Positions 10,090 to 62,216 of a DNA stretch of 64,000 nucleotides are shown piece after piece. The stretch is from Chloroflexota bacterium (GTDB lineage: Bacteria; Chloroflexota; Dehalococcoidia; DSTF01; JACRBR01): positions 64,345 to 128,344 of the forward strand of contig JANNPX010000025.1 of the NCBI GenBank assembly GCA_031400455.1, given 5' to 3'. The notes below the pieces were generated by a model. That model worked only from the letters and a program-made list of their open reading frames with translations. It did not search any database and was not told the DNA's origin. The stretch's first letter is position 1, and each line of letters begins with the position of its first letter. The translations under genes and the position numbers were made by a program.

Positions 10090-10132
10090 GGGCACGCGGT
10101 GGCGTGCGTGAACGAGTAATAGAGGGCTGACG

Positions 10133-10768: not shown

Positions 10769-10808
10769 GGGCGCACGGCTGTGCGCCCGGTTTGAGCAAG
10801 AGAAGAAG

Positions 10809-11486: not shown

Positions 11487-11489
11487 GCG

Positions 11490-11789: not shown

Positions 11790-11791
11790 CA

Positions 11792-12622: not shown

Positions 12623-12625
12623 CCC

Positions 12626-12934: not shown

Positions 12935-12937
12935 ACA

Positions 12938-13270: not shown

Positions 13271-13271
13271 G

Positions 13272-14045: not shown

Positions 14046-14051
14046 CGAGCG

Positions 14052-14710: not shown

Positions 14711-14719
14711 CGAGGACGT

Positions 14720-15558: not shown

Positions 15559-15560
15559 CC

Positions 15561-16468: not shown

Positions 16469-16470
16469 CC

Positions 16471-16656
16471 ATGGCGAAGACATCGATGATCGTCAAGGCG
16501 AACCGGGAGCCGAAGTTCTCGACGCGCAAGAAGAATCGCTGCAAGTTGTGCGGCCGGCCGCGGGCGTTCATCCGCCACTTCGCGCTGTGCCGCATCTGCT
16601 TCCGCGGTCTGGCGTTGAAGGGGCACCTGCCCGGGGTAATGAAGTCGAGCTGGTAG
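16471..16656 (+). CDS. rpsZ: 30S ribosomal protein S14, zinc-binding type Z
   Basis: 61 aa, CKLCGR...CRICFR. Confidence 0.96.
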
Positions 16657-16735
16657 AGAAGCCGGCCGGAAGGCCTTTCCGTAGCTCGGCCGCCGTTGGC
16701 GGACGAAAGCACGGGAGAATGAGGAGGCGGAAGCC

Positions 16736-17134
16736 TTGAACATGACGGATCCAATCGCGGACATGCTGACGCGCATCCGCAACGCGGTGACGGCCAAGCA
16801 CGAGTACGTCAACATCCCCGCTTCAAAGATGAAGCTGGCGATTGCGAACGTGCTGCGGAACGAAGGCTTCATCCGTGAGTACGAGATGCAGGAGGACGGG
16901 GTCCGCAAACTGCTCCGCGTCCACCTGAACTACACCGGAAAGAAAGAACCGGTGCTGTCAGGCCTGCAGCGCATCAGCAAGCCGGGTCTGCGGGTGTACG
17001 TGCAGAAGCGCGAGATCCCGCGCGTTTACGGCGGCCTGGGGATCGCGATTCTTTCGACGCCTCAGGGCGTAATGACGGGTCAGGACGCATGGCGGCGCAG
17101 CATCGGCGGCGAAGTCATCTGTTACGTGTGGTAG
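16736..17134 (+). CDS. rpsH: 30S ribosomal protein S8
   Basis: [15 protein letters not shown]; start is either the TTG at 16736 or the ATG at 16742. Confidence 0.95.
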
Positions 17135-17138
17135 AGCA

Positions 17139-17684
17139 ATGTCACGAATAGGCAAGCTGCCGATCCCGGTTGCGAAGAACGTACAGGTCGATGTTGACGG
17201 CTCGACTGTGAAGGTGAAAGGCCCGAAGGGCGAGCTCGTGCGCGACTTTCCGGCCGGCATCTCGTTCACAACAGCCGAAGGCACGATTACGGTCGTCCGT
17301 CCGAACGATGAGAAGAAGTCGCGCGCGCTGCACGGGCTGTCGCGCTCGCTGTTGGCGAACATGGTGACCGGCGTCGCCGATGGCTATACGAAGACGCTGG
17401 AACTGCAGGGCGTCGGTTACCGCGCGACGCAGTCCGGTGACAAGGTAACACTGGCCGTCGGATTCTCGCATCCCGTTGAAGTCGTGCCACCCGCGGGCAT
17501 CCAACTGGCAGTCGAAGGCACGACAAAGGTCCACGTCACCGGCATCGACAAGGAACTGGTCGGGCAGGTCGCGGCAAACATCCGTAAGGTGCGCAAGCCG
17601 GAGCCGTACAAGGGCAAGGGCATCCGCTACCTTGGTGAGTACGTGCGCAGGAAGGCCGGCAAGGCCGGCAAGGCAGGGAAGTAG
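17139..17684 (+). CDS. rplF: 50S ribosomal protein L6
   Basis: L6 family; ends in a [10 protein letters not shown] repeat. Confidence 0.95.
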
Positions 17685-18047
17685 ATGAAGGCATCCAAGA
17701 CAGGCCGCGCAGCGCGCATCCGGCGGCACGAGCGCGTGCGAAAGACCGTCTCAGGCACGGCCGAGCGGCCGCGGCTGGCGGTATATCGCAGCCTGACGCA
17801 CATCTACGCGCAGGTGATCGACGACGAACGCGGCCACACGCTGGCGGCAGCCTCCACGATGGAGAAGACGCTGAAGGGAACCAGCGGCGACAAGTCGGCA
17901 CGAGCGAAGGCAGTCGGCGCGGCTGTCGCGAAGAAGGCGATGGATACAGGCGTCACGAAGGTCGTCTTCGACCGCGGCGGAAACAGGTACCACGGTCGCG
18001 TCAAGGCGCTGGCCGATGCGGCCCGGGAAGCGGGCCTGCAGTTCTAG
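17685..18047 (+). CDS. rplR: 50S ribosomal protein L18
   Basis: L18 family, operon position. Confidence 0.94.
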
Positions 18048-18084
18048 GTAGAGTGTCCGCGTACCAGCGGACGAGGACAACGAC

Positions 18085-18636
18085 ATGACCGCACCAAGAA
18101 TGCCGAAGATTGAGCCGCGAGACCTGGACCTGCAGGAGAAGGTGGTCTTCATCAACCGCGTCTCCAAGGTGGTGAAGGGTGGACGCCGATTCAGCTTCAG
18201 CGCCGTCGTCGTTGTAGGGGATGGCCACGGCCACGTCGGCGCCGGCATGGGCAAGGCGAACGAAGTGCCGGACGCCATCAAGAAGGGCTCCGCCGTCGCA
18301 CGGAAGAATCTGATCTCGGTGCCGATGAATAAGGGCACGATCGCGCACCCCATCGTCGCCCACTTCGGCGCAGCCAAGGTGATGATGAAGCCGGCGTCGC
18401 CGGGTACGGGACTGATCGCCGGCGGTGGCGTGCGGGCCGTGATGGAGTCGGCGGGCATCAAGGATGTGCTGACCAAGTCGCTCGGCTCGTCGAACGCACT
18501 CAACGTGGTGAAAGCGACAATGGTGGGCCTCTCGCAACTGCGTGACCCCAAGGCCGTGACGGCTCGCCGCCGCGCGGCCGCCAACCGCCATTCGACCGAC
18601 GCGCTGCCGTCGACCGTTGCTCCGGTGGAGGCGTAA
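18085..18636 (+). CDS. rpsE: 30S ribosomal protein S5
   Basis: [26 protein letters not shown]. Confidence 0.96.
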
Positions 18637-18639
18637 GTC

Positions 18640-18819
18640 ATGGGAAAGATTAAGGTTACGTGGGAGCGCAGCGGCATCAACCAGAAGGAAGACCAGAAGC
18701 GCACGATTCGCGCGCTCGGTTTGCGCAAGCTGGGACAGACCGTGATTCACGACGATACCCGAACGATCCACGGCATGGTGACCAAGGTGCGGCACCTCGT
18801 CACGGTCGAGGAGGCGTAG
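18640..18819 (+). CDS. rpmD: 50S ribosomal protein L30
   Basis: 59-aa ORF (MGKIKVTWERSGINQKEDQKRTIRALGLRKL...) missing from the track because it is under 60 aa; operon position. Confidence 0.85.
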   Translation: MGKIKVTWERSGINQKEDQKRTIRALGLRKLGQTVIHDDTRTIHGMVTKVRHLVTVEEA

Positions 18820-19437
18820 ATGCAACAGCATGAACTGCGACAGGCTCCCGGCGCGACGCACAAGCGGAAGCGTGTAGGGCGCGGTAACGCCAGCGGCCAC
18901 GGCACGTACGCTACGCGCGGCCGAAAGGGACAGAAAGCGCGCTCGGGTGGAGGCGTGCGTCCCGGGTTCGAGGGTGGCCAGCTGCCGCTTATCCGCCGCA
19001 TGGCGTCAAAGCGCGGGTTCCGCAATCCGTTCCGAGTTGACTACGAAGAAGTGAACGTCGGCATGCTGTCGATCTTCTCAGGCGGCGCCGAAGTCAACGC
19101 CGAGTCTCTGGCGGCTACGCGCCTCGTGCGCACCGGCAAGCCGGTGAAGGTGCTCGGCGAGGGCGATGTCACCGCAGCGCTCACGGTCGAAGCGGCCAGC
19201 TTCTCGAAGTCCGCGATCGCGAAGATCGAAGCCGCGGGCGGCAGCGTACGCTGGTTGAACGGTGTGCCGGAGCCGAAGCCCGCCGAGCGAAAGCCGAACT
19301 CGGTGCGCGTGCGCAATGCCGCCAAGAAGCTCGCTGCTGCTGGCAAGCAGGCGGCGAAGGAATCGGCTGACGCTGCGGGCAAGCAGGCGAAGACGGACGC
19401 GAAGGACGAGGCGAAGGAAGAGGCGGCGGAGGCGTAA
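18820..19437 (+). CDS. rplO: 50S ribosomal protein L15 with Lys/Ala/Glu-rich C-terminal extension
   Basis: L15 core ending at about residue 150, then a KKLAAAGKQAAKESADAAGKQAKTDAKDEAKEEAAEA tail. Confidence 0.94.
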   Translation: MQQHELRQAPGATHKRKRVGRGNASGHGTYATRGRKGQKARSGGGVRPGFEGGQLPLIRRMASKRGFRNPFRVDYEEVNVGMLSIFSGGAEVNAESLAATRLVRTGKPVKVLGEGDVTAALTVEAASFSKSAIAKIEAAGGSVRWLNGVPEPKPAERKPNSVRVRNAAKKLAAAGKQAAKESADAAGKQAKTDAKDEAKEEAAEA

Positions 19438-19438
19438 T

Positions 19439-20818
19439 ATGGCGCTTGCAGCGAGCCGGCAACAAGCCAGCAGCCGACCGCGGCTGCTTCAGGCCGTCTT
19501 CGACGCGGTGCAGCAGCCGGACATCCGCAAGAAGCTGCTGTTCACGGCGGCGATGCTCGTCATCTTTCGGTTCGTCGCGCACATCCCGGTGCCGGGCGTG
19601 GATCCACGTCAACTCGAAGATGCATTCAACGAGAGCGCGCTCCTCGGTCTGTTCAACCTGTTTAGCGGTGGAGCGCTGCGGCGCGTTAGTATCGCTGCGC
19701 TGGGTGTGTATCCGTACATCACCGCCAACATCATCATGCAGCTTGTCACGCCGATCTTCCCGTCGCTCGCGAACCTCCAGAAGGAGGGCGAGGCGGGGCG
19801 CCACCGGCTGGAGCTGTATCAGCACTGGGCGACGGTGCCGCTCTGCTTCGTGCAGGGATACGCACAGCTCGTCATCCTTCATACGACCGTCTCGTCCGCA
19901 GCGCCCGGCGCCATGTTCGATCCCTCGTTCAGCGGCGATCAGGCGCTCGTGACGTTCACTGCGCTGTTCTCGATGACGGCGGGGACGCTCTTCTTGGTCT
20001 GGATCGGTGAGTTGATCACGGAGAACGGCATCGGCAACGGGATATCCGTGATCATCTTCGGCGGCATTGTCGCGGGCATGCCAGGCCTGCTGAATCAGCT
20101 CTTCAACTCGTCTATCGGCATCTTTGGCATCGGGTTACTGGCGGCGCTCACGGTGCTCCTCATCGCGGCGATCGTTTACATGCAGGAGGCGACGCGCAAG
20201 ATCCCCGTGCAATACGCGAAGAGCGTGTTCAGAGCCGGGAAGATGTACCGGCAATCGGGGCAGAGCCATATTCCCCTGCGGGTTAACTCGGCCGGCATGA
20301 TCCCGCTCATCTTCGCGTTCTCCATCGTGATCTTGCCGGCGTACATGGCGCAGTTCGTCCGAGACTCGTCCAGCACGCCATGGATCCGCAGCACGGCGAG
20401 CTTCGTGAACGATCTCGTGTCGCCGGGTACCGGGACCGGCCAGGGTACAAGCCCCGGCTTCTACATCTTTGTGTTCCTTCTGGTCATTGGATTCAGCTTC
20501 TTCTACACGCTCGTGGTGTATCAACAGCAGAATCTTGCGGAGAACCTGCAGAAGCAGGGTGGTTTCGTGCCGGGCATTCGTCCCGGCCGGCCCACAGGCG
20601 AGTACATCATGCGCGTCCTCGTGCGCATCACCTGGGCTGGCGCGATCTTCCTGGGGATCGTCGCGGTCCTCCCGTACCTCGTCACCAACTGGTTCGATAC
20701 GACATCGCTGAGCATCAGTAGTACCGGCATGCTCATCGTCGTCGGCGTCGTGCTGGATACGATGAAACAACTCGAAGCGCAGCTCCTGATGCGCAACTAC
20801 GAGGGGTTCATCCGCTAG
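19439..20818 (+). CDS. secY: preprotein translocase subunit SecY
   Basis: Start trimmed to the ATG just after the rplO stop (459 aa); ten predicted TM segments. Confidence 0.95.
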   Translation: MALAASRQQASSRPRLLQAVFDAVQQPDIRKKLLFTAAMLVIFRFVAHIPVPGVDPRQLEDAFNESALLGLFNLFSGGALRRVSIAALGVYPYITANIIMQLVTPIFPSLANLQKEGEAGRHRLELYQHWATVPLCFVQGYAQLVILHTTVSSAAPGAMFDPSFSGDQALVTFTALFSMTAGTLFLVWIGELITENGIGNGISVIIFGGIVAGMPGLLNQLFNSSIGIFGIGLLAALTVLLIAAIVYMQEATRKIPVQYAKSVFRAGKMYRQSGQSHIPLRVNSAGMIPLIFAFSIVILPAYMAQFVRDSSSTPWIRSTASFVNDLVSPGTGTGQGTSPGFYIFVFLLVIGFSFFYTLVVYQQQNLAENLQKQGGFVPGIRPGRPTGEYIMRVLVRITWAGAIFLGIVAVLPYLVTNWFDTTSLSISSTGMLIVVGVVLDTMKQLEAQLLMRNYEGFIR

Positions 20819-36310: not shown

Positions 36311-36553
36311 TTACGCCGGCGACGGCCCTTCGAGCAGGCGCATCCTGCGCCGTCTGCGCTCGAGGCGCCGCAACGGCAGCGTGGCCGCTGCCCGGCGCTC
36401 GTACGTAGCGATGCGCTGGTACGTGCGGGCGCGCGCGTGCACGGCGGCTGGTTCGTCGTCGGCTTGATCCGCGCCCGCGGCATCCTCGCCCGAGCTGAGC
36501 GCGACCATGCGTTCGACCGCCTTCTGCTTATCGAGTATCAGCATTGATGGCAT
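36311..36553 (-). CDS. hypothetical small protein overlapping the 3' end of the HTH gene
   Basis: GC3-rich 80-aa ORF with GGAG 4 nt before the ATG; no motif. Confidence 0.25.
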   Translation of the reverse strand: MPSMLILDKQKAVERMVALSSGEDAAGADQADDEPAAVHARARTYQRIATYERRAAATLPLRRLERRRRRMRLLEGPSPA

Positions 36554-36743
36554 TGATCTCCTGCCTGACGATCTGGCTGACGCGCTGGCGGGTGACGCCA
36601 AAGTGCTCTGCCAGCCGCGATTGCAGTCCCCAGCGACCGCCGTTGCCGGCGACGCCACGCTTGATCAATACCCGCGCCGCAATGCGCAGCTTCTCGGTCC
36701 GGGTCAACTCCTCCTCTTCGAACGTCTGCAACTCCATGGTCAT
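36528..36743 (-). CDS. small HTH protein resembling sigma-70 region 4.2
   Basis: LAEHFGVTRQRVSQIVRQEI; GGGAGG RBS 6 nt before the ATG; 71 aa. Confidence 0.5.
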   Translation of the reverse strand: MTMELQTFEEEELTRTEKLRIAARVLIKRGVAGNGGRWGLQSRLAEHFGVTRQRVSQIVRQEINAINADTR

Positions 36744-37070
36744 CCCTGCCCTCCCAGTGAACGCCCGTTGCCGGGCCAGTGCGTATCCGTGCCCGTCGGA
36801 CTTGACGAGCAAGATCGACTTTACATAGACGCTCTCACCGGACGCGTTCGCGGCTCTTACCATCTTTTTGGGTTCATTTCGCTGGCTAACCACAGCACTA
36901 GGACGGCGTCGGTTGGCCAGGTCATTGGTCGTTGGACGATTGAGGTTGGAACGGTTGAGGCCTACGAAGGGGCGGTGGCGCCGACTGGAGAAGGTCCTTC
37001 GCTGCGCTCTGGACGACACACACCAAGGCCAGCCAACTCGCCGCGACCACGCAGGTGCTACGATCTCGTC

Positions 37071-37919
37071 ATGAGCCGCCGCGCGATCCCCGTCGTGGCT
37101 GCGTGCGCCCTGGGCGTGCTGGCCACGGCTTGTTCGGGGGGAGGGCAGTCGGCGACTTCCACTCCATCACCATCCGATACGGCTACCTTCGCTCCGGCGA
37201 CGCCGACACCGTTCCCGACGTTCACCCCGACGCCCGTGCTCCGTGCCGGGGTGCAGATCGTCGTGGGCGGTGATCTGCGTGTACGGAGCGGGCCGGCGAC
37301 AACGGCGCCGCCCGTGAAGACGCTGAAGGACATGACGCCCGTGCTGATCGATGTGGCGGTCGAGGGCGAGAATGTGCTCGTCGGTAAGCAGACTTGGGTG
37401 CCGACGGTGCCGGACTGGACTCGGACGTGGTTCCGTCTGACCGACGGCACATTCGTGTACTCGGCCTTCGTTTTCATCCAGCAACTCGGCGAAGAGTCTC
37501 CGCTGGTCGACGCGAAGGGGCAGGAGAAGTGGATCGACGTGAACGTCACGGCGCAGACGGCGACGGCGATGGTCGGCGTAACGCCGGTGTACACGGCGCC
37601 GGTCTCGACGGGCTCTCCGGGCTTCCCGAGTCCGCTAGGGTCGCATCGCATCGAGAAGGACGGCCGCCTCGCCGTCGAACGCATGACAGCGTCGCAGGCA
37701 GGCTACTCGGCGGAGCAGGCGGTGTACGACGTCGAGAACGTGCTCTTCACGCAGTACTACGACCAGAAGGGCGACGCGCTCCACCTCAACTACTGGCGCC
37801 CGAAGGAGGTCTTCGGTCAGACGGCGACGAGCCACGGCTGCGTCGGCATGCAACTCCACGATGCGCAGTGGTTCTGGCTGTTCGGGTCGGCGAACATGCG
37901 GGTGGAGATACATGGGTAG
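37071..37919 (+). CDS. lipoprotein with SH3b-like and L,D-transpeptidase (YkuD) domains
   Basis: Lipobox LATAC and catalytic SHGCVGM; the track ORF is over-extended upstream. Confidence 0.75.
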   Translation: MSRRAIPVVAACALGVLATACSGGGQSATSTPSPSDTATFAPATPTPFPTFTPTPVLRAGVQIVVGGDLRVRSGPATTAPPVKTLKDMTPVLIDVAVEGENVLVGKQTWVPTVPDWTRTWFRLTDGTFVYSAFVFIQQLGEESPLVDAKGQEKWIDVNVTAQTATAMVGVTPVYTAPVSTGSPGFPSPLGSHRIEKDGRLAVERMTASQAGYSAEQAVYDVENVLFTQYYDQKGDALHLNYWRPKEVFGQTATSHGCVGMQLHDAQWFWLFGSANMRVEIHG

Positions 37920-37954
37920 TTTGCAGTTCGTGGTTCGTAGTTTGTAGTTCAGGA
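37920..37954. repeat. STRR-like heptamer tandem array (TTYGYRG x5)
   Basis: TTTGCAG TTCGTGG TTCGTAG TTTGTAG TTCAGGA directly after the ldt stop. Confidence 0.8.
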
Positions 37955-44593: not shown

Positions 44594-44775
44594 TGGCGCC
44601 CTCACCCGTCGCCTTCGGCGCCACCCTCTCCACCAAGGGGAGAAGGACCGGGGATCGGCTACAGCGACAGCGACGGGATTTTCGATCACACGGCGATCGG
44701 CCGCCCGTAAAGGCGCAACCTGTTGCGCCCTCGTTCGTGCGCGTCGATCGTTCTACTCCCGCCCCATCCTTCTCA

Positions 44776-44840
44776 TCTGAGGGAGAGGAACGACCGCCAC
44801 GAGAACATCGCCCATCCCTCTCCCCCTGAGGGAGAGGGAC
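44776..44840. repeat. CTGAGGGAGAGG direct repeats and CCCTCTCCC/GGGAGAGGG hairpin
   Basis: Two copies of CTGAGGGAGAGG. The second forms a 10-bp perfect stem TCCCTCTCCC-cctga-GGGAGAGGGA. Confidence 0.7.
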
Positions 44841-44908
44841 AGCGGAGCCGTCAGGCGACGCAGGGTGAGGGCCCGCCCCAAGACCATAAGCCCACGCGCG
44901 GATACACT

Positions 44909-44943
44909 CGACTACCCACTACGAACTACCAACTACGAACTAG
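44909..44943. repeat. STRR-like heptamer array, reverse orientation (CTACRAA-type x5)
   Basis: CGACTAC CCACTAC GAACTAC CAACTAC GAACTAG, then GGAGCCCCCC-ATG of the ACAD gene. Confidence 0.8.
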
Positions 44944-47154: not shown

Positions 47155-47709
47155 TCATACCGGCTGCAGCCGCTCCGCGGCCGCCGCGCCTGACGGCGCC
47201 TTGACGCGGATGGCGTCGCCGGGGCGGACGGTGCCGCCTTCGAGCACGATTGCCATGATGCCGGCTTTGCGGGTGATGCTGCCGTCGTCGGCTTTCATCG
47301 CCACTTGCTGGAGCAGTCGCTCGTCGACGCCATTGAGCTGCGCGCAGGGGTTGCGGACGCCCGTCACTTCGATGATGGCGCTGTCGCCGAGATAGAGCTT
47401 CGTGCCGGGCGCGAGATCGAGGATCGCGAGGCCGCGCGTCGTGATGTTCTCGCCCATCGCGCCGGGCGTGACCGTGATGCCGATGGCGGCCATCTCGTCG
47501 AACAGCTCGGAGTGCATCAGGTGCACCTGGCGGATGTTCGGCAGGTCGGGCGTCGCCGCCGCGCGGCTGCGGTGCCGCACCTTCGCTCCGGCGTGGTAGT
47601 CGCCCTCGACGCCGTGGCCGGCGATGAGCATCACGCTCTCGCGCGGGATCTTGCCGACGCCCGGCGTCTCTTTACTGTTGACGGAGATGATGGTGGGTGT
47701 GGACTTCAC
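47155..47709 (-). CDS. MOSC domain-containing protein
   Basis: GHGVEGDYHAG and a beta-barrel MOSC pattern; start either the GTG at 47709 or an internal ATG. Confidence 0.75.
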   Translation of the reverse strand: MKSTPTIISVNSKETPGVGKIPRESVMLIAGHGVEGDYHAGAKVRHRSRAAATPDLPNIRQVHLMHSELFDEMAAIGITVTPGAMGENITTRGLAILDLAPGTKLYLGDSAIIEVTGVRNPCAQLNGVDERLLQQVAMKADDGSITRKAGIMAIVLEGGTVRPGDAIRVKAPSGAAAAERLQPV

Positions 47710-47760
47710 AGTTTGCGGTTCACAGTTTGCAGTTCGTGGTGGGTGGTTGGTAGTTCGTAG
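47705..47760. repeat. STRR-like heptamer array (x8)
   Basis: TTCACAG TTTGCGG TTCACAG TTTGCAG TTCGTGG TGGGTGG TTGGTAG TTCGTAG abutting the MOSC start. Confidence 0.8.
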
Positions 47761-47786: not shown

Positions 47787-47847
47787 GTAGGGACGCACCT
47801 TCAGGTCCGTCCCGAACCGCCGGACGGAGCTAAAGCTGCGTCCCTAC
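47787..47847. other. nested hairpin structure
   Basis: GTAGGGACGCA ... TGCGTCCCTAC (11-bp perfect) enclosing GTCCGTCC...GGACGGAG. Confidence 0.5.
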
Positions 47848-47968: not shown

Positions 47969-48880
47969 TCACCCCTCGTCGCGGGTCGACGGCACATCTG
48001 GTGATTCGGCGGGCGGGGCGGCCTTCAGGAAGTCGGGCGGCGTTGCGCGCTTGCCTTCGGTCGCTACGGACGAGCCGATCTCTTCGATGATGCGGAAGTC
48101 GTCGTCGGCCAGCGGGGCAAGTTCGCCGCGGCGGTGGGCGTCGAACAGCTCGAAGAGGTGCTTCTTGTGTGGGCGCTTCTTGCCGATTGGGCACGCGGCC
48201 CAGTCCTCGAGCGACTCGTCGCAGTAGCCCCAGCGCTTGTCGCCGCACTTCGGCTGGATGTACTTCGCCAGCTCCGGGAACTTGCGGTTGATCTCGCCGC
48301 GCATCTGCGACGCGGTCTGGCGGAACTCCCACTGCGCGCGCGTGCAGAGCCGCAGGTCGCAGATGTGCAGCAGTTCGAGGAAGTTCACGACGATCTTGAA
48401 GTTCGTGTTGGCGGCGTTCGGGATCAGGAACCGCGCGTCCTCGGCGGGCACCCCGGCGTCGAGCATCTCCTGGTAGAGGTCGCCGAGCTTGCCGAACGCG
48501 TCTTCCATCTTGTCCGCCATGCCCGCGCGCTTCACCGTTTCCGGGATGGTGTACGGGAATTCGCCCTTCTTGAAGGCGACGTAGCGCTGGCTCTGCTGCT
48601 CGAAGCTGATGCCAATGTGGTGGCGGACGAACTGGTGACTGAATGCGCGGCTGACGCCGGAGATCGCGAACTCGAACCACACCTGCTCGAGCGGTGAGGC
48701 GTGCCCGGTCTCAAGCCGCTTCTCGATGAACTCTTCCATCTGCGCCCGCGTGATCTTCTCCGACGTGATCTGATCGACGATCTTCTGCGGCGTCAGCGCC
48801 GAATATGCGGTGCGATACGCGACGTACAGCGAGCGCGCCGGGTCGGTAGTGTGGTCAAGCAGCCGGACGTTGATGGGCAT
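47969..48880 (-). CDS. thyX: FAD-dependent thymidylate synthase ThyX (extended form)
   Basis: ThyX signature RHHIGISFEQQSQRY (RHR-x7-S variant) with N- and C-terminal extensions. Confidence 0.8.
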   Translation of the reverse strand: MPINVRLLDHTTDPARSLYVAYRTAYSALTPQKIVDQITSEKITRAQMEEFIEKRLETGHASPLEQVWFEFAISGVSRAFSHQFVRHHIGISFEQQSQRYVAFKKGEFPYTIPETVKRAGMADKMEDAFGKLGDLYQEMLDAGVPAEDARFLIPNAANTNFKIVVNFLELLHICDLRLCTRAQWEFRQTASQMRGEINRKFPELAKYIQPKCGDKRWGYCDESLEDWAACPIGKKRPHKKHLFELFDAHRRGELAPLADDDFRIIEEIGSSVATEGKRATPPDFLKAAPPAESPDVPSTRDEG

Positions 48881-48888
48881 GGGGGGAG

Positions 48889-48923
48889 TTTACAGTTTGT
48901 AGTTTGTAGTTCACAGTTGGACG
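48889..48923. repeat. STRR-like heptamer array (x5)
   Basis: TTTACAG TTTGTAG TTTGTAG TTCACAG TTGGACG. On the gene strand it reads ...AACTCCCCCC-ATG(thyX). Confidence 0.8.
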
Positions 48924-49015
48924 GCGGTCAGCGTGTCAGCCAATCAGGCCGTCAGCGCGTGAGCAGCAGCGCCTCCCGGCGAAGCAGTGCTAGGCGACGT
49001 AACGGAGGACCCGGG

Positions 49016-49108
49016 CTGAAAGCCCGCGCTACCGAAGAAGGTGGCTACTGAAAGCCCGCGCCCACAGAAGATGCTACGGCTGAGAGGCTGACTAGCTGAC
49101 CCGCTACG
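49016..49108. repeat. direct repeats CTGAAAGCCCGCGC (x2) and octamer array NNGCTGAC
   Basis: 49016-29 and 49048-61 are identical. AGGCTGAC TAGCTGAC CCGCTACG overlaps the peptidase stop. Confidence 0.75.
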
Positions 49109-55263: not shown

Positions 55264-55351
55264 TGGCGGAGGGGGTGGGATTCGAACCCACGGTGGTTTG
55301 AGCCACAACCGTTTTCAAGACGGTCTCCATAGTCCACTCGGACACCCCTCC
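55264..55351 (-). tRNA. tRNA-Ser (anticodon UGA), CCA encoded
   Basis: GGAGGGGTGTCCGAGTGG...ACCGT-cTTGAaa-ACGGT...long variable arm...GTGGGTTCGAATCCCAC-CCCTCCGCCA, 88 nt. Confidence 0.9.
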
Positions 55352-55467
55352 GTTCGGTGCAATTGTAGGGGATTGGTCTTCAGTCGTCAGTTGAAGGTCG
55401 TCGGGGGCGGCGTCCGATCGGCTCTGTTACCATGCGCCGTGTTGGCGAACCGCGACGAGTTCCCGCG

Positions 55468-55515
55468 AAGCTGACCCGCTGACAGGCTGACCCGCTGACT
55501 AGCTGAAAGCTACCC
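55468..55515. repeat. octamer tandem array NNGCTGAC x5-6
   Basis: AAGCTGAC CCGCTGAC AGGCTGAC CCGCTGAC TAGCTGAA AGCTACCC, immediately before the GTG of the GT4 gene. Confidence 0.8.
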
Positions 55516-56802
55516 GTGAAGATCTGCTTCCTCATGTACCAGGGCAACATGTACTCGGGCGGGCAGGGCGTATACCTGTTCTACCTGACGCGCGAACTGG
55601 CGCGCATGGGGCACGAGGTGCATGTCATCGCAGGGCCGCCGTACCCGACACTCGATGAGCGCGTGACGACGCACAACGTCACCGACTACAGCTACTGGAC
55701 GTACCACCACTACAAGAAGGACTTCGTCTTCAACCGGCCGCCGCTCAGCTACTTCCACCCGGTCAACCTCTACGACTTCATCTCGACGCGCATCGCCCTG
55801 TCGTCGCTGCTGGCGAACTTCAGCGTGCGGGCGTACTTCAAGCTGCGTGAGCTGGCGCGCGAGCATCGATTCGACGTCGTGCACGACAACCAGACGCTGA
55901 GCTACGGAGTCTGGGCAACGCACGCAAGCGGCTTTCCGCTGGTGGCGACGATCCACCATCCGCTGTCGTACGACCTGAAAAACCAGCTCCGGCAGGCGCG
56001 CTCCACGTACGAGAAGGCACGTCGCATCCTCTGGTCGCCGTGGTACATGCAGGAGTGGACGGCGAAGAGCGTCGACCGCGTGATCGTCGTGTCCGAGACA
56101 TCGCGCGTCGACGTCGAGGAGGCGTTCCAGCTTCCACCCGAGAAGGTGCGCACCGTGTACAACGGCATCGACGTCGACACCTTCCGGCCGCTGCGGGGTG
56201 TCGAGCGCCAGCCCGACAAGCTGCTGTACGTCGGCAACTCCGAGGATCGCAACAAGGGCGCGCGCTACTTCCTCAAGGCGCTCGACATCCTCAAGGACGA
56301 GATTGACTTCCGCGTCACCTTCGTCGACAACGTGAAGCACAACCTGAAGCTGGCGCCGAAGCTGGTCGATGACTACGGCCTGAATTCGCGCGTCGACTTC
56401 ACCGGCCGCATCCCGACGGAAGACCTCGTGCGCCACTACAACGAGGCGAAGCTGCTCGTCACGTCGTCGGTACACGAGGGGTTCGGGCTGCCGCTCGCGG
56501 AGGCGATGTCGTGCGGCACGCCGACCGTCGCGACCGATATCGGCGCGTACCGGGAGATCGTCGAGCACGGCAAGAGCGGCTGGCTGGTGCCGCCGTCCGA
56601 TCCGCGGGCGCTTGCGGACGCGATCCGTATGATGTGGAATGACGTTGGCCTTCGTCAGCGGCTCAGCGAGGGCGGCCGCCAGCGCATCGAGGAGAAGTTC
56701 AACTGGCGGAAGGCCGCCGAGGAGACGCTGGCCGTGTACGAGGAGATAGTCCCGGCCAAACGCCGCACCTTCGCCATGCCGGAACAGGTTCCGGGCGCGT
56801 AG
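55516..56802 (+). CDS. GT4-family glycosyltransferase (GT-B, PimA-like), paralog 1
   Basis: GTG start; MYQGNMYSGGQGVYLFYLTRELARMGHEVHV; C-terminal EX7E-like region. Confidence 0.85.
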   Translation: MKICFLMYQGNMYSGGQGVYLFYLTRELARMGHEVHVIAGPPYPTLDERVTTHNVTDYSYWTYHHYKKDFVFNRPPLSYFHPVNLYDFISTRIALSSLLANFSVRAYFKLRELAREHRFDVVHDNQTLSYGVWATHASGFPLVATIHHPLSYDLKNQLRQARSTYEKARRILWSPWYMQEWTAKSVDRVIVVSETSRVDVEEAFQLPPEKVRTVYNGIDVDTFRPLRGVERQPDKLLYVGNSEDRNKGARYFLKALDILKDEIDFRVTFVDNVKHNLKLAPKLVDDYGLNSRVDFTGRIPTEDLVRHYNEAKLLVTSSVHEGFGLPLAEAMSCGTPTVATDIGAYREIVEHGKSGWLVPPSDPRALADAIRMMWNDVGLRQRLSEGGRQRIEEKFNWRKAAEETLAVYEEIVPAKRRTFAMPEQVPGA

Positions 56803-56817
56803 TTCCAGGTTTTCAAC

Positions 56818-57588
56818 TTGCCCGACAACATCGTCAACGTCGATTTCAAGCGCCACTTCCAAATCGAGCCCGGCGAGCGCGTGCTTGACCTCGGCTGCGG
56901 CAACGGCCGTCACACCATGGAAGCCGCGCGCTACCCCGGGCGTATCGTCGGCCTAGACTTCTCACGCGATGATCTGGTTGCGGCCAAGTTCATGTACGAC
57001 GATATGGTGCGGCAGGGGAAGATCCGCGGCCGCGCCGACTTCATCGTCGGGGACGCCCAGAACCTGCCGTTCAAAGACGGAGCGTTCGACAAGTCTCTCT
57101 GCACCGAGGTCTTCGAGCACATCCCGGACGACCGCCGCGGCATCGCGGAGTTCCTGCGCGTCACGAAGCCTGGCGCGCAGACGGTCGTCAGCATCCCGGC
57201 GTACTGGCCGGAGCGGGCGTACTGGGCGCTGAGTTGGGATTACTGGCACTCGCCGGGCGGACACGTGCGGTGGTACCGTCCGGGGCAGATGCGGCAGATC
57301 CTCGAAGAGAGCGGTATGGATGTCGAGTTCCAGCGGCGGCGGCATTCGTCGCAGAGCTTCTACTGGTTCCTGCGCTGCATCCACGGCCTGCCGAACGAGA
57401 ACTTCTTGCCGGTGCGCCTGACGTGGAAGCTGATCAACGTCCACCACAACCGCCGCCTCAAGCTGCTCGAATACATCGAGACGATCGCGAACCTCGTCAT
57501 CGGCAAGGATCTGATCCACTACGGCCACAAGCGCGGAGCGGCGAAGACGGCCGAGCCGGCGCACGAATTTGCCGGCGTGTCGCGCTAG
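56818..57588 (+). CDS. class I SAM-dependent methyltransferase, paralog 1
   Basis: VLDLGCGNGRH and LPFKDGAFD; TTG start. Confidence 0.8.
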   Translation: MPDNIVNVDFKRHFQIEPGERVLDLGCGNGRHTMEAARYPGRIVGLDFSRDDLVAAKFMYDDMVRQGKIRGRADFIVGDAQNLPFKDGAFDKSLCTEVFEHIPDDRRGIAEFLRVTKPGAQTVVSIPAYWPERAYWALSWDYWHSPGGHVRWYRPGQMRQILEESGMDVEFQRRRHSSQSFYWFLRCIHGLPNENFLPVRLTWKLINVHHNRRLKLLEYIETIANLVIGKDLIHYGHKRGAAKTAEPAHEFAGVSR

Positions 57589-57605
57589 CTCGCGAGGCTC
57601 CACGA

Positions 57606-59000
57606 ATGACCATCCAGAACGCGAGGCGCCTGCCATCTTCGGCGGAGATGACCGAGCGGTTGCAGTCGTGGATCGAGCGCTTTCGCGTTACCGGCGCGTC
57701 GATCGCTTGGATGCACGGCGACGAGGTCGCGACCGCTGCGGCGGGCGCAATTAACCTGAACACGGGCGTCGACGTCACGCAGGATACGCTGTTTCAGATC
57801 GGCTCGATTACCAAGATCTACACGACGACGCTGATCATGCAGCTCGTGGATGAAGGGCGGATCGAACTCGACGCGCCGGCGACGAATTACCTTCCCGAAC
57901 TGAGGTTCGGCAACGGAACAGCGTCGCGCACAGTCACAATCCGCCAGTTGCTCACGCACACGAGCGGCGTTGATGGCGACTTCTTCGACGACTTCGGGCG
58001 TGGCGACGATTGTGTTGAGAAGTACGTGGCTGCGTGCGGGAACCTGCCGGAGGTCTTCCCGGCCGGCACCATGTGGTCGTACTGTAATGCCGGCTTCGTG
58101 GTGCTTGGGCGCATCGTCGAGTTGATGACCGGCATGAACTGGGACGCCGCACTCAAGACGCGCATCCTCGACCCGATTGGCGCGTCCCACACTGTCACGC
58201 TTCCCGAGGTGGCGCTGTTGCACCGCACGTCTGTTGGACATGGATTCAACCTATCGCTACAGATCGAGCGCAGCCCGTACTGGAATCTCGCGCGTGCCGC
58301 CGGACCGGCAGGAGCTACTCCGTGCGCAACGGCGGCGGATCTGCTGACGTTCGCGAAAGTGCACATCGACGGCGGCGTTGCCGTAGGCGGCGCGCGCGTC
58401 CTGTCCGAAGCGTCCGTCCGGGCGATGCAGCAGTCGCAGTTCGACCTGCCGCGGGTGCCCGGTGAGGGAGCAGCGCACTGGGGACTCGGCTGGATGCTGT
58501 TCGACTGGGACGGGCGCCGAGTCATCGGCCACGACGGCGGTACGATCGGCCAGCTCTCGTCTCTGCGCATCCTGCCCGAGGAGCGCTTCACCGTTGCTGT
58601 CCTGACCAACACGACCCCAACGGGCGGGTTGCTCGGTAGCCGTGTCATGCGCTGGCTGTTCGAAGAGACGCTTGGCATCGAGATGCCGGCGCGGCCGAAG
58701 CCACCGGAATCGCCGGTAGAGATGGATGTGCGACCTTACGCCGGCGTGTACGAGCGGCTCGGGCTGCGCGTGGACATAGCGGAGAAGGACGGTCAGCTGT
58801 CGGCGAAGTACACGGGCAGCGGTGCGCTCTCGGATCTTCAAATCGATCAGCCGCCATACGACCTGATACCGGTCGAGCACGGGCTATTCGTCGAGAGGAA
58901 CCCATACACGGGGACGTACGCTCCCGTGACGTTCAGTGGATTTGAGAACGGGCGTCCGCGCTTTATAGAAGCGACACGCGTCGCACGGCGCGTAGGCTAG
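57606..59000 (+). CDS. serine hydrolase, beta-lactamase/transpeptidase fold (class C / esterase-like)
   Basis: SxxK motif IGSITKIY and later YxN/HxG-like elements; start trimmed to the ATG at 57606. Confidence 0.8.
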   Translation: MTIQNARRLPSSAEMTERLQSWIERFRVTGASIAWMHGDEVATAAAGAINLNTGVDVTQDTLFQIGSITKIYTTTLIMQLVDEGRIELDAPATNYLPELRFGNGTASRTVTIRQLLTHTSGVDGDFFDDFGRGDDCVEKYVAACGNLPEVFPAGTMWSYCNAGFVVLGRIVELMTGMNWDAALKTRILDPIGASHTVTLPEVALLHRTSVGHGFNLSLQIERSPYWNLARAAGPAGATPCATAADLLTFAKVHIDGGVAVGGARVLSEASVRAMQQSQFDLPRVPGEGAAHWGLGWMLFDWDGRRVIGHDGGTIGQLSSLRILPEERFTVAVLTNTTPTGGLLGSRVMRWLFEETLGIEMPARPKPPESPVEMDVRPYAGVYERLGLRVDIAEKDGQLSAKYTGSGALSDLQIDQPPYDLIPVEHGLFVERNPYTGTYAPVTFSGFENGRPRFIEATRVARRVG

Positions 59001-59043: not shown

Positions 59044-60489
59044 ATGGTGTCCACGCTCGACCGCTTCCAGTCCATCGATCCCGCGCTGCTCGATATCGGG
59101 CCCGCGGATCGCGTCATCGATCTGGGCTGCGGCACGGGGCGTCACGTGCTGGAACTTTCGAAGATCCCGGCCGACATCATCGGCGCTGACATCTCGCGCA
59201 CCGATATCCGCGCCGGGCGCTACCTGCTCGAGATCATGCGGCGACGCGACGAAGTGAAGGCGCGCGTCCACTGGCTGCAGACGGCGGGGGAGCGGCTGCC
59301 GTTCAAGGATGGCGCCTTCGACCGCGTCATCTGCACCGAGACGCTGGAGCACGTCGACGACGAACACGTGCTGGCGCGCGAGCTGGCTCGCGTGCTCAAG
59401 CCAGGGGGCATCCTGGCGATCAGCGTGCCAGACGAGTACTCCGAGAAGGTGTTCTGGAAGCTGTCGAAGAACTACCGCACGCATGCTGGTGGGCATGTCC
59501 GCATCTTCGGCCGCAGTGAGATCGTGCGCCTCATGCGCACATCCGGGCTGGAGCCGTACGCCGTTCGCTATCGTCACTCGCTCGAGACGGTGTACTGGCT
59601 CAGCCACGTCGCGTTCTGGAGCGACTGGGGCAAGCAGGGGCCGATCACCAGCGCCTTCCGCCGCATCCTCGACTCGCAGCGGGCGCGCGCATCCGGCATC
59701 GTCACCGCGCTCGATGACATCGGCAACCGCATCCTGCCGAAGAGCATCGTCGTATACAGCCGCAAACCGCTGCAAGGCGCGTCGCGCAACGGCGCGAGCA
59801 CCAACGGACACAGCCTCGTCGATATCGACGAGCGCACGAAGGTGGAAGTGCGAGCCGTACCAGCGCCGTTCGCCATCGATCCGGGCGCGCCGGTTGTCAC
59901 GGGTGACATCCCCGCGACCGCATTCTCATTGAAGGACGAACTGCGCATCGCGCTCAAGCTCGATCCGGAGCCGCAGAAGGCGCGGCTGATCGAGCTGCTG
60001 CGCTCGTGCCGCTTCAGCATGATGCGCGAAGTGCAGGCGCTCAGCGGCGAGCAAGCGTCGACGCCGTGGACGCCCGACGGCCGCTCGATGAAGGAGATTG
60101 TCGGGCACATCACGGGGTGGGAACGCTGGGCGACGGCCGCCCTCGATCAGATCGCGACGGGCGTCTCGGAGCCGTCCATCATGTCGCTCAGCGGCTACCC
60201 GGAGGGCATCCGCCGCTACGGTTCGGTCGAGGCGTTCAACGCCGCGCGCATGGGCGAAGCGCGCGAACAGCCATGGGCGGAGATCCTCGAGCAGAGCGAC
60301 GCGATCTTCGACGCACTGATCGCCGCAGCCGAACGTACGCCAGCCACGTCGCTATCACAGACCGCCGATTTCTTCTGGCCGGATCTCGGTGGGACGGTCC
60401 CTTGTGGCATGTATCTGCTGATGGTCTCCGCGTACCACTACCAGGAGGAACATCTGCCAGAGGTTGTCGGGCGAGTTGGTAGTTCGTAG
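59044..60489 (+). CDS. fusion: class I SAM methyltransferase (paralog 2) + C-terminal ClbS/DfsB-like (DUF1706) four-helix-bundle domain
   Basis: N-terminus: VIDLGCGTGRH and LPFKDGAFD. C-terminus: IVGHITGWERW ... AYHYQEEH. The stop TAG lies inside the heptamer array. Confidence 0.65.
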   Translation: MVSTLDRFQSIDPALLDIGPADRVIDLGCGTGRHVLELSKIPADIIGADISRTDIRAGRYLLEIMRRRDEVKARVHWLQTAGERLPFKDGAFDRVICTETLEHVDDEHVLARELARVLKPGGILAISVPDEYSEKVFWKLSKNYRTHAGGHVRIFGRSEIVRLMRTSGLEPYAVRYRHSLETVYWLSHVAFWSDWGKQGPITSAFRRILDSQRARASGIVTALDDIGNRILPKSIVVYSRKPLQGASRNGASTNGHSLVDIDERTKVEVRAVPAPFAIDPGAPVVTGDIPATAFSLKDELRIALKLDPEPQKARLIELLRSCRFSMMREVQALSGEQASTPWTPDGRSMKEIVGHITGWERWATAALDQIATGVSEPSIMSLSGYPEGIRRYGSVEAFNAARMGEAREQPWAEILEQSDAIFDALIAAAERTPATSLSQTADFFWPDLGGTVPCGMYLLMVSAYHYQEEHLPEVVGRVGSS

Positions 60490-60510
60490 TTGGCAGTTAG
60501 TAGTTCTTTG
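60476..60510. repeat. STRR-like heptamer array (left flank of the 4HB gene)
   Basis: TTGGTAG TTCGTAG TTGGCAG TTAGTAG TTCTTTG. Confidence 0.8.
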
Positions 60511-60529
60511 GTGCTGAGTTGGATGATGC

Positions 60530-60892
60530 GTGCAGGACTATAAGAAGCTCAAAGTGTGGGAGAAATCGCACGCGCTGACGCTCGCGGTCTACCGCGCCAC
60601 AAGCAAGTTCCCCAAGCACGAACAGTACGGGCTCGTCAGCCAACTGCAGCGCTGCTCCAGTTCCGTGCCGTCGAATATTGTCGAAGGTTGCGGCCTCAAC
60701 ACGAAGCCCGAACTTCTCAAGCATTTGCACTATGCGATGGGCTCGGCGAAAGAGATGGAATACCAGCTGCTACTTGCGAAGGACCTCGGCTACGTTCCGA
60801 ATGCGGCGTACGAATTGCTTGCGAAGGATGTGGACGAAGTCGAACGCATGCTCTCCGCCCTGATCTCGACGATCCGCCGAGGCAGCGCGTAG
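60530..60892 (+). CDS. four-helix-bundle protein (23S rRNA intervening-sequence protein / Avd-like family)
   Basis: WEKSHALTL...QLQRCSSSVPSNIVEG...GSAKEMEYQLLLAKDLGY is the typical signature of this family. GTG start. Markedly lower GC. Confidence 0.8.
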   Translation: MQDYKKLKVWEKSHALTLAVYRATSKFPKHEQYGLVSQLQRCSSSVPSNIVEGCGLNTKPELLKHLHYAMGSAKEMEYQLLLAKDLGYVPNAAYELLAKDVDEVERMLSALISTIRRGSA

Positions 60893-60899
60893 CGTGGAA

Positions 60900-60934
60900 G
60901 AACTACAAACCACAAACTACGAACTACAAACTCC
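60900..60934. repeat. STRR-like heptamer array, inverted orientation (right flank of the 4HB gene)
   Basis: GAACTAC AAACCAC AAACTAC GAACTAC AAACTCC, the reverse complement of the left-flank type. Confidence 0.8.
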
Positions 60935-60953
60935 CCTCAAAATCGCCTTCATC

Positions 60954-62216
60954 ATGTACCAGGGCAACATGTACTCGGGTGGGCAGGGCGTCTACCTGCA
61001 CTACATCACGCGCGAGCTCGTGAGACTGGGGCACGAAGTGCACGTCATTTCGGGGCGGCCGTATCCGCGGCTCGTCGATGGCGTCGTACACCACAAGCTG
61101 CACACCTACACGCTGTGGGCGTTTCTCGACGGGCGCGACGAACTGGCGTACAACGACGCGCCGTTCGCAATGCTGCACCCGTGGAACTTCTACGAGTTCG
61201 CTTCGACGCGCGTGTCGCTCGGCTCGCTGTTCTTTTCGTTCAGCGTGCGCGCCTACCAGAAGCTCGCTGAAATCGAGCGCCAGTACGGGCCGTTCGACCT
61301 CGTGCACGACAACCAGACGCTCGGTTACGGCATCCTCGCCATGAAGAAGCTGATGGGCAAACCGGTCGTCGCGTCGCTCCACCACCCGCTCGCGATCGAC
61401 AAGGCGAACAACTTGCGGGAGGCGAAGACCGTCGTCCGCCGCCTCTCGCGCGAGATCTGGTTCCCGGGACGCATGCAGTCGATCGTCGCGAACGGCATCG
61501 ACATGATCTTCACGGGATCGCGGAACTCCGCGCAGAGCGTCAGCGCATCGATGGATATCCCGCTCGAGCACATTCGCCAGACGCCGTACGGCGTCGACCA
61601 CGAGATCATGCACCCGCTATCCGACGCCGCGCGCGTCCCCGGTACGATCCTCTTCGTCGGCGACTCCGAAGACCGAAACAAAGGCGCACGCTTCCTCATC
61701 GAAGCCTGCGCGCAGCTGCAGCACGACACCGACTTCCGCCTGCTCTTCAAGGACAAGAAGGAGAGGGATATGACGGTCGTGCCGCCGCTCGTCTGGAAGC
61801 ACGGGCTGCAGCGATTCGTCGAGTACATCCCGCGGCTGGAGACCGACGAACTGGTGAGGCTCTACAACAGCGCCCAGATCGTCGTGTCGCCGTCGCTATA
61901 CGAAGGCTTCGGCCTGCCCGCTGCCGAGGCGATGGCCTGCGGCGCCGCAGTCATCGCAACGACGGCCGGCGCCTTTCCGGAGTTCATCGAGGACGGCCGC
62001 ACCGGCATCCTCGTCCCGCCCGGCGACGCCGACGCGCTGGCCGCCGCCATCCGCTCGCTGCTTGCTGATCCCGAACGCTGCGTCCGCATGGGCGCCGCCG
62101 CGAGCGAGCACATCCGCACGAACTTCACCTGGGAGCGCACGGCGAAGATCACGCTCGACCTGTACGGCGAGGTGCTGGCGAAGCAACCCCGTCGTCCCAC
62201 ATCCATCGTCTCGTAG
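60954..62216 (+). CDS. GT4-family glycosyltransferase, paralog 2 (possibly 5'-disrupted)
   Basis: MYQGNMYSGGQGVYLHYITRELVRLGHEVHV. The ancestral MKI... start is now LKI (CTC), so translation must begin at the ATG at 60954 or the GTG at 60894. Confidence 0.7.
   Translation: MYQGNMYSGGQGVYLHYITRELVRLGHEVHVISGRPYPRLVDGVVHHKLHTYTLWAFLDGRDELAYNDAPFAMLHPWNFYEFASTRVSLGSLFFSFSVRAYQKLAEIERQYGPFDLVHDNQTLGYGILAMKKLMGKPVVASLHHPLAIDKANNLREAKTVVRRLSREIWFPGRMQSIVANGIDMIFTGSRNSAQSVSASMDIPLEHIRQTPYGVDHEIMHPLSDAARVPGTILFVGDSEDRNKGARFLIEACAQLQHDTDFRLLFKDKKERDMTVVPPLVWKHGLQRFVEYIPRLETDELVRLYNSAQIVVSPSLYEGFGLPAAEAMACGAAVIATTAGAFPEFIEDGRTGILVPPGDADALAAAIRSLLADPERCVRMGAAASEHIRTNFTWERTAKITLDLYGEVLAKQPRRPTSIVS

Follow-up and report, generated by a model that had tools for sequence, protein, structure and literature searches.

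The subject of this analysis is a small gene cassette in a Chloroflexota bacterium, found in a stretch of 64,000 nucleotides of contig JANNPX010000025.1 (assembly GCA_031400455.1) that is referred to here, at its full length, as the window. The cassette consists of one open reading frame (ORF) for a four-helix-bundle protein of the S23p family (a family discovered in intervening sequences of ribosomal RNA), bracketed by two complementary arrays of tandem heptamers and placed between a methyltransferase gene and a GT4 glycosyltransferase gene. Among related genomes, the junction stays the same and the cassette at it is acquired, lost or exchanged as a whole. It is read here as an intervening-sequence (IVS)-type gene cassette that lies outside rRNA and is embedded in an operon, a reading to which a probability of roughly 0.55 is given. 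Ranked second, and compatible with it, is a reading in which the arrays are binding sites of the encoded protein.

The cassette takes up the whole interval between its two neighbors, beginning where the conserved codons of the upstream gene end and reaching to the start codon of the downstream one, and it has the same orientation as both. By inspection, the left array (60474-60508, + strand, (AGTTNGT)x5) reads AGTTGGT AGTTCGT AGTTGGC AGTTAGT AGTTCTT, and the right array (60898-60932, + strand, (ACNAACT)x5, the complement of the left unit) reads AAGAACT ACAAACC ACAAACT ACGAACT ACAAACT. Both were called by Tandem Repeats Finder at period 7 with 4.6-4.7 copies, and an inverted-repeat search paired a left arm at 60470-60508 with a right arm at 60898-60936 (both + strand), over 39 nt and with 85% complementarity. 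TAG is present in all three + frames of the left array, and no + frame of the right array contains a stop. A leader from the left array to the start codon (60509-60529, + strand) carries a weak purine-rich stretch, GGATGA. The gene itself (60530-60892, + strand, 120 aa, GTG start, TAG stop) matches PF05635 with E=1.9e-36 (124.9 bits against a cut-off of 33.8, residues 5-109 of 120) and TIGR02436 with E=3.1e-35 (120.7 bits against a cut-off of 24), and a profile of the protein's relatives matches PDB entries 2GSC (E=3e-28) and 2RLD, each deposited with 5 chains. These results bear out an earlier note on this DNA, made from the sequence alone, which had proposed a four-helix-bundle gene between inverted heptamer arrays.

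The GC content is 57.9% in the four-helix-bundle gene, 34-40% in the arrays and 65% in the neighboring genes. The gene is the only ORF inside the cassette and is present in one copy in the 64 kb, and no pseudogene fragments of it were found within the window. A consensus scan detected neither a sigma-70-like promoter in the cassette nor a terminator-like site on its + strand; the single terminator match is on the minus strand, at chance rate. At Rfam gathering thresholds, the cassette matches no family and the window yields tRNA only.

To compare this junction across genomes, the GT4 protein was used as the query in a metagenome scan, which returned 76 loci (given here by L numbers). Junctions between the methyltransferase::DinB gene and the GT4 gene that are empty of the cassette were found in L087 (GT4 91% identical), L088, L089, L145, L147, L107 and L006. 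Their spacers of 36-314 nt are mutually unrelated and free of heptamer arrays, and the GT4 gene begins with ATG-AAR-(ATC/CTC). Occupied and empty alleles interleave in the GT4 tree (L003 with L087, L091 with L006, L092 with L088). Within one clade, the GT4 N-terminal domains share 89-98% protein identity and the adjacent four-helix-bundle proteins 45-82%; the array types AGTTCGT, AGTTCAC and TCAGC in that clade track the lineage of the four-helix-bundle protein, not the host.

A sharp drop in identity separates L093 from L094, where both flanks are 92-100% identical at the nucleotide level and the cassette 33-83%. The breakpoints are the outer ends of the arrays, from just past the upstream gene's ...HHYQEEHLPE(V) codons to the base before the GT4 ATG. 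Synonymous (dS) and nonsynonymous (dN) divergence follow the same division, with dS 0.27 and dN 0.009 for GT4 and dS 1.35 and dN 0.29 for the four-helix-bundle gene. This is a cassette replacement at a fixed junction. Because empty sites are free of arrays and divergent cassettes lie between near-identical flanks, the arrays and the gene act as a single exchangeable unit. The idea of a discrete unit that comes and goes, which the earlier note had wished to check by a search for empty sites, is supported by gene-less, array-less junctions in related genomes. The same note held that arrays standing at this locus in related genomes, with neither the gene nor signs of excision, would speak against a cassette, and this objection has some substance: L095 and L104 carry a one-sided array at this GT4 start, and the gene is absent.

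In the window's own clade (the window, L004, L085, L003, L091 and L005), the cassette and its flanks diverge together, and the cassette is therefore judged to be inherited vertically here. The four-helix-bundle gene shows dN/dS of 0.05-0.10 against its orthologs in this clade, at dS of about 1 or more; the protein is thus under purifying selection and functional. Exchange between genomes probably proceeds by homologous recombination through the conserved flanking genes, with no cassette-encoded transposase. The left flank would be a conserved gene end or a tRNA, and the right flank the conserved MKIAFIMYQGNMYSGG coding region; exchange through such flanks would give sharp boundaries without element-encoded machinery.

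The heptamer bracket extends well beyond this junction. The gene family was sampled at 80 loci on one-genome-per-species contigs, which include Chloroflexota, Acidobacteriota, Planctomycetota, Verrucomicrobiota, Bacteroidota, Nitrospirota, Cyanobacteriota and others, and flanks of 110 nt on each side were analyzed for 87 family members; gene calls in the fetched loci are crude, metagenomic contigs may be chimeric and the array-detection thresholds are arbitrary. Period-7 arrays occur at 3.95 per kb within 120 nt of the ends of four-helix-bundle genes and at 0.087 per kb in the other 1.2 Mb (a ∼45-fold enrichment), and periods 5, 6, 8, 9 and 10 give 0-3 arrays each close to the gene. At the strict threshold, 65 of the 87 genes have at least one array and 34 of 87 have both. 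A complementarity score of at least 12 between arms of the same locus was reached at 60 of 87 loci, compared with 8.8% of cross-locus pairings. Polarity is fixed: upstream arrays are YAGY-only in 30 cases and RCTR-only in 1, and downstream arrays are RCTR-only in 26 and YAGY-only in 3.

Unit types vary by lineage, AGCNNTC being the commonest, followed by TTAGCNN, TTGGCNN, CTAGYNN and AGTTNGT, with a loose consensus across lineages of A-G-Y-(T)-N-T-Y. The number of complete units per arm peaks at 4 and ranges from 2 to 12. The downstream arm begins in the stop codon or a few nt past it, and the upstream arm stops short of the start codon by a median of 30 nt. Neighboring genes are mostly co-oriented with the four-helix-bundle gene (61:13 upstream and 56:16 downstream, by crude ORF calling). 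The bracket is also present on cyanobacterial plasmids, such as Nostoc punctiforme pNPUN02, where (TCAGGAG)x5 lies directly upstream of the gene and its complement downstream, and in IMG/VR contigs, with further heptamers (GGGTGTA, GAGAACT, GGAGAGT and GGGAATT) in distant family members. No conserved 23S or 16S rRNA motifs were detected in 180 related loci. Stops in all three frames were considered as the cause of the period of 7 and rejected as a general rule, because the arrangement is reversed in the window's clade and stops are missing from several distant unit types; on the outward-reading strand, stops occur in 76-77% of arrays, with about 36% expected.

Other arrangements of arrays occur in single loci. 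In L025 (Blastocatellia metagenome-assembled genome contig JAIBAN010000033.1), many intergenic inverted pairs of heptamer arrays enclose 27-110 nt of non-homologous sequence within a 20-kb locus (1063-19446). Their unit types are AGGACTG, GAGAATT, TGAGTTT and ATTTGCG, some of them present at two or three sites, which gives the impression of a system of intergenic hairpins that extends over the genome. At 9950-10180 of the same locus, a tandem duplication covers the left array, the leader and ∼120 nt from the beginning of the ORF, and L085 (about 2845-3000) carries a tandem duplication of the last ∼50 nt of the ORF together with a second right array. Arrays seem to promote local recombination or slippage.

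The proposed IVS-type unit comprises, in order, the left heptamer array, a leader of ∼20 nt, the PF05635 four-helix-bundle ORF and the complementary right array. It would be transcribed as part of the host operon, and the two arrays would pair in the transcript to form a stem of ∼35 bp. By homology with the ORF-bearing intervening sequences of 23S rRNA, this stem is a putative, and by that analogy likely, RNase III substrate; the insert would be cut out of the host RNA and so be tolerated. The predicted folds are consistent with such a stem. The arms-only hairpin reaches -47.6 kcal/mol (z = -8.2), and the arms pair in both the minimum-free-energy and the centroid folds of a 496-nt sequence that contains the whole cassette.

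Several observations weigh against this account. Mismatches in the stem show no bias toward G-U over A-C (54 vs 50, family loci), and the fold has no strand preference (-47.6 vs -47.7 kcal/mol). Fine-scale covariation of the arms is also missing in the AGTT clade, where within-locus matching scores 21.1 and cross-locus matching 18.8, with 2 of 9 loci best on the diagonal. Since the arms in this clade match no better within a locus, they lack the compensatory evolution expected of a strictly selected stem. Furthermore, a stem alone does not account for the period of 7, the YAGY core or the fixed polarity, and a hairpin model does not account for solo, one-sided arrays beside start codons.

The closest known relatives of the cassette are the ORF-bearing 23S rRNA intervening sequences of Leptospira, Coxiella burnetii, Brucella and Haemophilus. 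They share with it the S23p/PF05635 protein family, complementary termini that enclose the ORF and pair into a long stem, and a sporadic distribution with long-suspected mobility. In Coxiella burnetii, the S23p ORF lies in a 23S rRNA insert whose inverted repeats form a 28-bp stem, and RNase III cleaves this stem at the first repeat; three tandem GACAGAT heptamers, with a copy number that varies between strains, lie just upstream of the ORF (PMC4990558). Tandem heptamers beside the ORF are thus another shared feature, and the Xanthomonas homolog is a toroidal homopentamer (PMC4990558 citing Lin 2006). The cassette differs in lying between protein-coding operon genes, in a window without rRNA (Rfam). 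Its arms are whole arrays of 4-5 degenerate heptamers with 85% complementarity, whereas the Coxiella IVS has a near-perfect 28-bp stem, and RNase III cleavage, which is described for the Coxiella IVS, is predicted for the cassette by homology. Such rRNA inserts have been proposed to be transposon remnants or mobile elements (Burgin 1990; Ralph and McClelland 1993; in PMC4990558). The statement in the earlier note that a unit of this kind had not been described as mobile is therefore inaccurate, given the 1993 proposal for ORF-bearing 23S rRNA IVS and the heptamers already reported for Coxiella.

The host genes on either side appear to have absorbed parts of the cassette. The upstream gene (59044-60489, + strand; ORF list and Pfam) encodes an S-adenosylmethionine methyltransferase with a DinB-like C-terminal domain. 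It matches the Pfam families Methyltransf_23/11/25 at E of about 1e-21. Its C-terminal half matches DinB_2/MDMPI_N weakly (E about 1e-4, below cut-off), and the Pfam scan gave no ClbS match; 'DinB-like' is therefore a safer name for this half than the ClbS fusion partner assigned by the earlier note. The last codons of the gene and its stop, TAG 60487-60489, fall inside the left array, so that the stop is made from a repeat unit, as had been claimed.

The downstream GT4 glycosyltransferase gene (60894-62216, + strand; Pfam) likely starts at GTG 60894, 1 base past the cassette stop. At 60936-60938 the window reads CTC in place of the GT4 ATG that is present in empty-site relatives and in several occupied ones, which agrees with the earlier suggestion that this gene lost its ancestral start. 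ATG-AAR is retained at empty sites and in L091, L092, L094 and L137. The ATG-less alleles (the window, L003, L004, L085 and L005) all keep an in-frame GTG, which lies at or just past the four-helix-bundle stop and overlaps it in L005, and their spacers of 57, 60, 60, 63/72 or 81 nt are all multiples of three despite the 7-nt array units. Because all five alleles hold this in-frame GTG despite the varying spacer, GTG 60894 is the most likely start in the window, and the right array would be translated as an N-terminal extension, MEELQTTNYELQTP-LKIAFIMYQG. The right-arm orientation has no stops in any frame and can therefore be translated. The arms thus seem, judging from these reading frames, to have been co-opted by the host at this junction, the left array giving the upstream stop and the right array being read as a GT4 N-terminal extension.

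Other arrangements of these genes occur. The cassettes of L146 and L148 have a left array and no right array, and the TGA of the four-helix-bundle gene overlaps the GT4 ATG (ATGA), a translationally coupled arrangement. In the window, a ∼1.4-kb ORF (57600-59000), whose product resembles by eye a serine hydrolase or beta-lactamase, lies between two methyltransferase genes that are 70 nt apart in the orthologous L003 (8431-8501).

Arrays of the cassette's unit type are found elsewhere in the window. A scan for (AGTTNNN)n gave 5 arrays, against 0.04 expected in shuffles, and Tandem Repeats Finder added a sixth (44911-44942). Four of these arrays are solo, and they carry the cassette's rare AGTTNGT unit. 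The array at 37918-37952 (+ strand) is in left-arm orientation and provides the TAG stop of the + strand ORF 36507-37919. The other three are in right-arm orientation relative to their genes: 44911-44942 (+ strand) lies 13 nt upstream of ATG 44956 of an acyl-CoA dehydrogenase-like gene, 47710-47737 (- strand) adjoins the GTG start (47707-47709) of ORF 47155-47709, and 48887-48921 (- strand) lies ∼6 nt upstream of ATG 48878-48880 of ORF 47969-48880. The right arm of the cassette and three of the four solo arrays thus stop 0-13 nt short of a start codon, in the same orientation.

The window also holds two ORF-less inverted pairs, both of a type (TCAGC/GCTGA, period ∼8) that differs from the cassette arrays. 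The pair at 48923-49105 (no strand assigned) encloses ∼120 nt and folds with z = -2.35. The other, at 55376-55513 (+ strand), lies upstream of a paralogous GT4-A gene (55516-56802); its left arm is TCAGTCG TCAGTTG at ∼55380-55393 and its right arm (GCTGACNN)n at 55469-55512, with period 8. The arms of this second pair do pair in the fold, yet no better than shuffles (z = -0.77). In L006, L132, L140 and L158, the same junction holds a full cassette. The arrays are therefore not private to the cassette, given the four solo arrays and two ORF-less pairs of the window and the one-sided arrays of L095 and L104. Decayed four-helix-bundle genes beside the solo arrays and the ORF-less pairs were looked for by tblastn with E up to 20, and none was found; a recurring weak match at 56704-56874 is the C-terminus of GT4-A.

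Further small features surround these arrays. A tRNA gene (55267-55351, - strand) adjoins the ORF-less pair upstream of GT4-A, and the full cassette at the corresponding junction of L140 and L158 is directly preceded by a tRNA-like 3' end that points the other way, which suggests either that the region was inverted or that a tRNA-flanked site was used independently. At the position between the GT4-A and methyltransferase genes, or shortly ahead of them, L003 has a solo array of AGTTCTA type (7602-7630), L005 has 112 nt of ACGAACY-type array upstream of the methyltransferase (3249-3360), and the window has at this spot (56800-56818) a degenerate trace only (TAGTTCC AGGTTTT CAACTT). About 12 GTAGGGACG...CGTCCCTAC hairpins (e.g., 47787-47847) occur in the window in both orientations, with one mismatch allowed; a similar hairpin is present in the empty-site spacer of L089, and a looser version in that of L087. 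Palindromic GAGGGAGAGG / CCTCTCCCTC units cluster at 44600-44870, in the 317-nt spacer upstream of the 44911 array, with more copies scattered in the window. Small elements of several kinds turn over between the genes here.

Tandem heptamers have a history of their own. In cyanobacteria, the short tandemly repeated repetitive (STRR) heptamers reportedly go back to Mazel et al. in 1990. Direct repeats of the heptamer TAACTGA are abundant and intergenic in Beggiatoaceae, Cyanobacteria and Bacteroidetes, and a post-transcriptional regulator has been postulated for them (MacGregor 2015, PMC4679880); a Nostoc preprint likewise invokes a 'yet to be identified' heptamer-binding partner (bioRxiv 10.1101/2022.06.06.494920). 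The TAACTGA and STRR repeats resemble the right arm and the solo arrays in being intergenic tandem 7-nt units, typically in 2-6 copies, and the TAACTGA repeats also resemble them in lying mostly in one orientation and ending a few nt from a start codon. The TAACTGA unit is similar to the RCTRA type found here, while the cassette unit itself differs in sequence. Moreover, these reports describe single direct arrays, whereas the cassette arrays stand in inverted orientation on either side of genes from one particular family; PMC4679880 has 0 occurrences of four-helix-bundle, S23 or IVS genes. Full-text searches of incomplete coverage found no literature link between PF05635 genes and flanking heptamer arrays outside the Coxiella IVS.

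These parallels bear on the second-ranked reading, a possible but tentative one, in which the arrays would be cognate RNA or DNA binding sites of the encoded toroidal protein, with one subunit per YAG-plus-four-spacer unit. Comparable recognition is known from HutP, which reads (UAG-N4)3, from TRAP, which reads NAG repeats, and from the omega repressor, which reads DNA heptads. Protein bound to one arm would compete with arm-arm pairing, so that the gene would be autoregulated and the translation of array-abutting genes set, and solo arrays elsewhere would be further targets; all of this is compatible with a cassette. The period of 7 and the semi-conserved unit with two or three variable positions, both kept across phyla with fixed polarity, suit a protein site better than a plain stem. 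The arrays have also outlasted a divergence of dS greater than 1, lie directly beside start and stop codons and, where they stand solo in the window, share the cassette's rare unit. The family forms a homopentameric toroid (PMC4990558 citing Lin 2006; 5 chains in PDB 2GSC and 2RLD), which would make the encoded protein an obvious candidate binder for such YAGY-core arrays, and a heptamer-binding protein has been postulated twice (PMC4679880; bioRxiv 10.1101/2022.06.06.494920). Against this stand the unrelated heptamers used by distant family members, the weak match of arrays more than 400 nt from a cassette to its unit (12%, vs 5% of controls) and the number of units per arm, which shows no sharp 5 within its range of 2-12; the specific idea of five units for a pentamer was rejected on the peak at 4 and this range. 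A broader proposal, also rather unlikely, is that PF05635 toroids are the missing partner of STRR/TAACTGA-type heptamer arrays in cyanobacterial, Bacteroidota, Chloroflexota, Acidobacteriota and other genomes. The gene would travel with its cognate arrays, its pentamer would bind tandem heptamers in RNA or single-stranded DNA, and a pan-bacterial system would regulate array-abutting genes and seed or maintain ORF-less and solo arrays in the manner of RAYT and REPIN.

Movement by transposition is improbable. The element would then be a DNA transposon or resemble a miniature inverted-repeat transposable element (MITE), with arrays as terminal inverted repeats containing iterated binding sites; the mover would be a transposase encoded elsewhere or the four-helix-bundle protein, and ORF-less pairs would be non-autonomous derivatives, as in REPIN-RAYT. 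In the latter system, inverted copies of a repeat lie on both sides of a single gene, and the repeat is also scattered through the genome, singly and as inverted doublets; the Correia/NEMIS elements of Neisseria are RNase III-processed MITEs in mRNAs, whose inverted repeats lie between genes, are co-transcribed and form stems. The cassette is like both in its inverted repeats between genes, and like REPIN-RAYT in its single gene with a dispersed repeat; it differs in its tandem heptamer arms, the lack of a TA target duplication, a protein that is not a known transposase and ORF-less loops that are not shared. Presence, absence and replacement at fixed junctions fit transposition, as do the ORF-less inverted pair at a junction occupied in relatives by a full cassette and the many ORF-less pairs of one Blastocatellia locus, several with a common unit type. 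The loops of same-unit pairs are non-homologous, however, and these pairs are therefore not copies of one element. The four-helix-bundle protein WP_010994075.1 is annotated on two Nostoc PCC 7120 plasmids, L161 (NC_003276.1, pCC7120alpha) and L162 (NC_003267.1, pCC7120gamma), whose common DNA, ∼91% identical, begins at the ORF start, extends ∼100 nt beyond the stop and includes a (CCTCTGC)n array; both genes sit just downstream of an ISL3-family transposase gene, though, and may have moved as passengers. No target-site duplication was found in 41 loci, where the longest word shared by the 14-nt stretches outside the arms has a mean length of 3.0 (3.2 in mismatched pairs), although array ends are fuzzy and very short duplications could escape this test. 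The unit encodes no transposase, and its 120-aa helical bundle has no known catalytic motif. Transposition also sits poorly with the single copy in 64 kb, the high divergence of cassettes on one contig (L091/L140), stable inheritance over dS of about 1 in the window clade, the one-sided arrays without a gene in L095 and L104 and the cassettes without a right arm in L146 and L148.

Two further explanations have little left to recommend them. That the arrays represent simple-sequence repeats or leader elements of an ordinary kind, spread over the genome and flanking an unrelated small gene by chance, is very improbable. Six same-unit arrays in 64 kb, of which four lack a neighboring gene of this family, and the known heptamers beside start codons in other phyla (PMC4679880) speak for it. 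This coincidence is largely refuted by the 45-fold enrichment at family gene ends across phyla, the within-locus matching and fixed polarity of the arms, the array-free empty junctions and the way in which array type tracks the four-helix-bundle lineage in near-identical host backgrounds. The least probable explanation, to which almost no weight is given, is a remnant of a diversity-generating retroelement with the gene as its Avd accessory protein. Avd has the same fold superfamily, a pentameric four-helix bundle, and the cassette protein is weakly similar to bAvd (PF22296, E=3.6e-5) and to the Avd equivalog NF033474 (33.3 bits). Both scores are nevertheless below the curated cut-offs (40 bits for PF22296 and 80 bits for NF033474). 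No reverse transcriptase is present among the called genes within 10 kb on either side in the orthologous L003 or in four scanned ORFs of the window, and a repeat search of 60300-61100 gave no template/variable repeat pair.

The cassette may join three old puzzles into one: the role of S23p/Avd-like proteins in rRNA intervening sequences (since 1993), the nature of the heptamer repeats (cyanobacterial since 1990, Beggiatoaceae since 2015) and the spread of small promoterless genes between operon genes. The cassette protein is a candidate for the 'yet to be identified' heptamer-binding factor, and the GT4 extension from the right array would be an example of repeat DNA drawn into coding sequence. 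With boundaries placed at the nucleotide level and natural empty, occupied and swapped alleles, the cassette offers material for experiments. Should RNase III cut at the arms, cassettes of this kind would contribute widely, and so far without annotation, to the processing of operon mRNAs.

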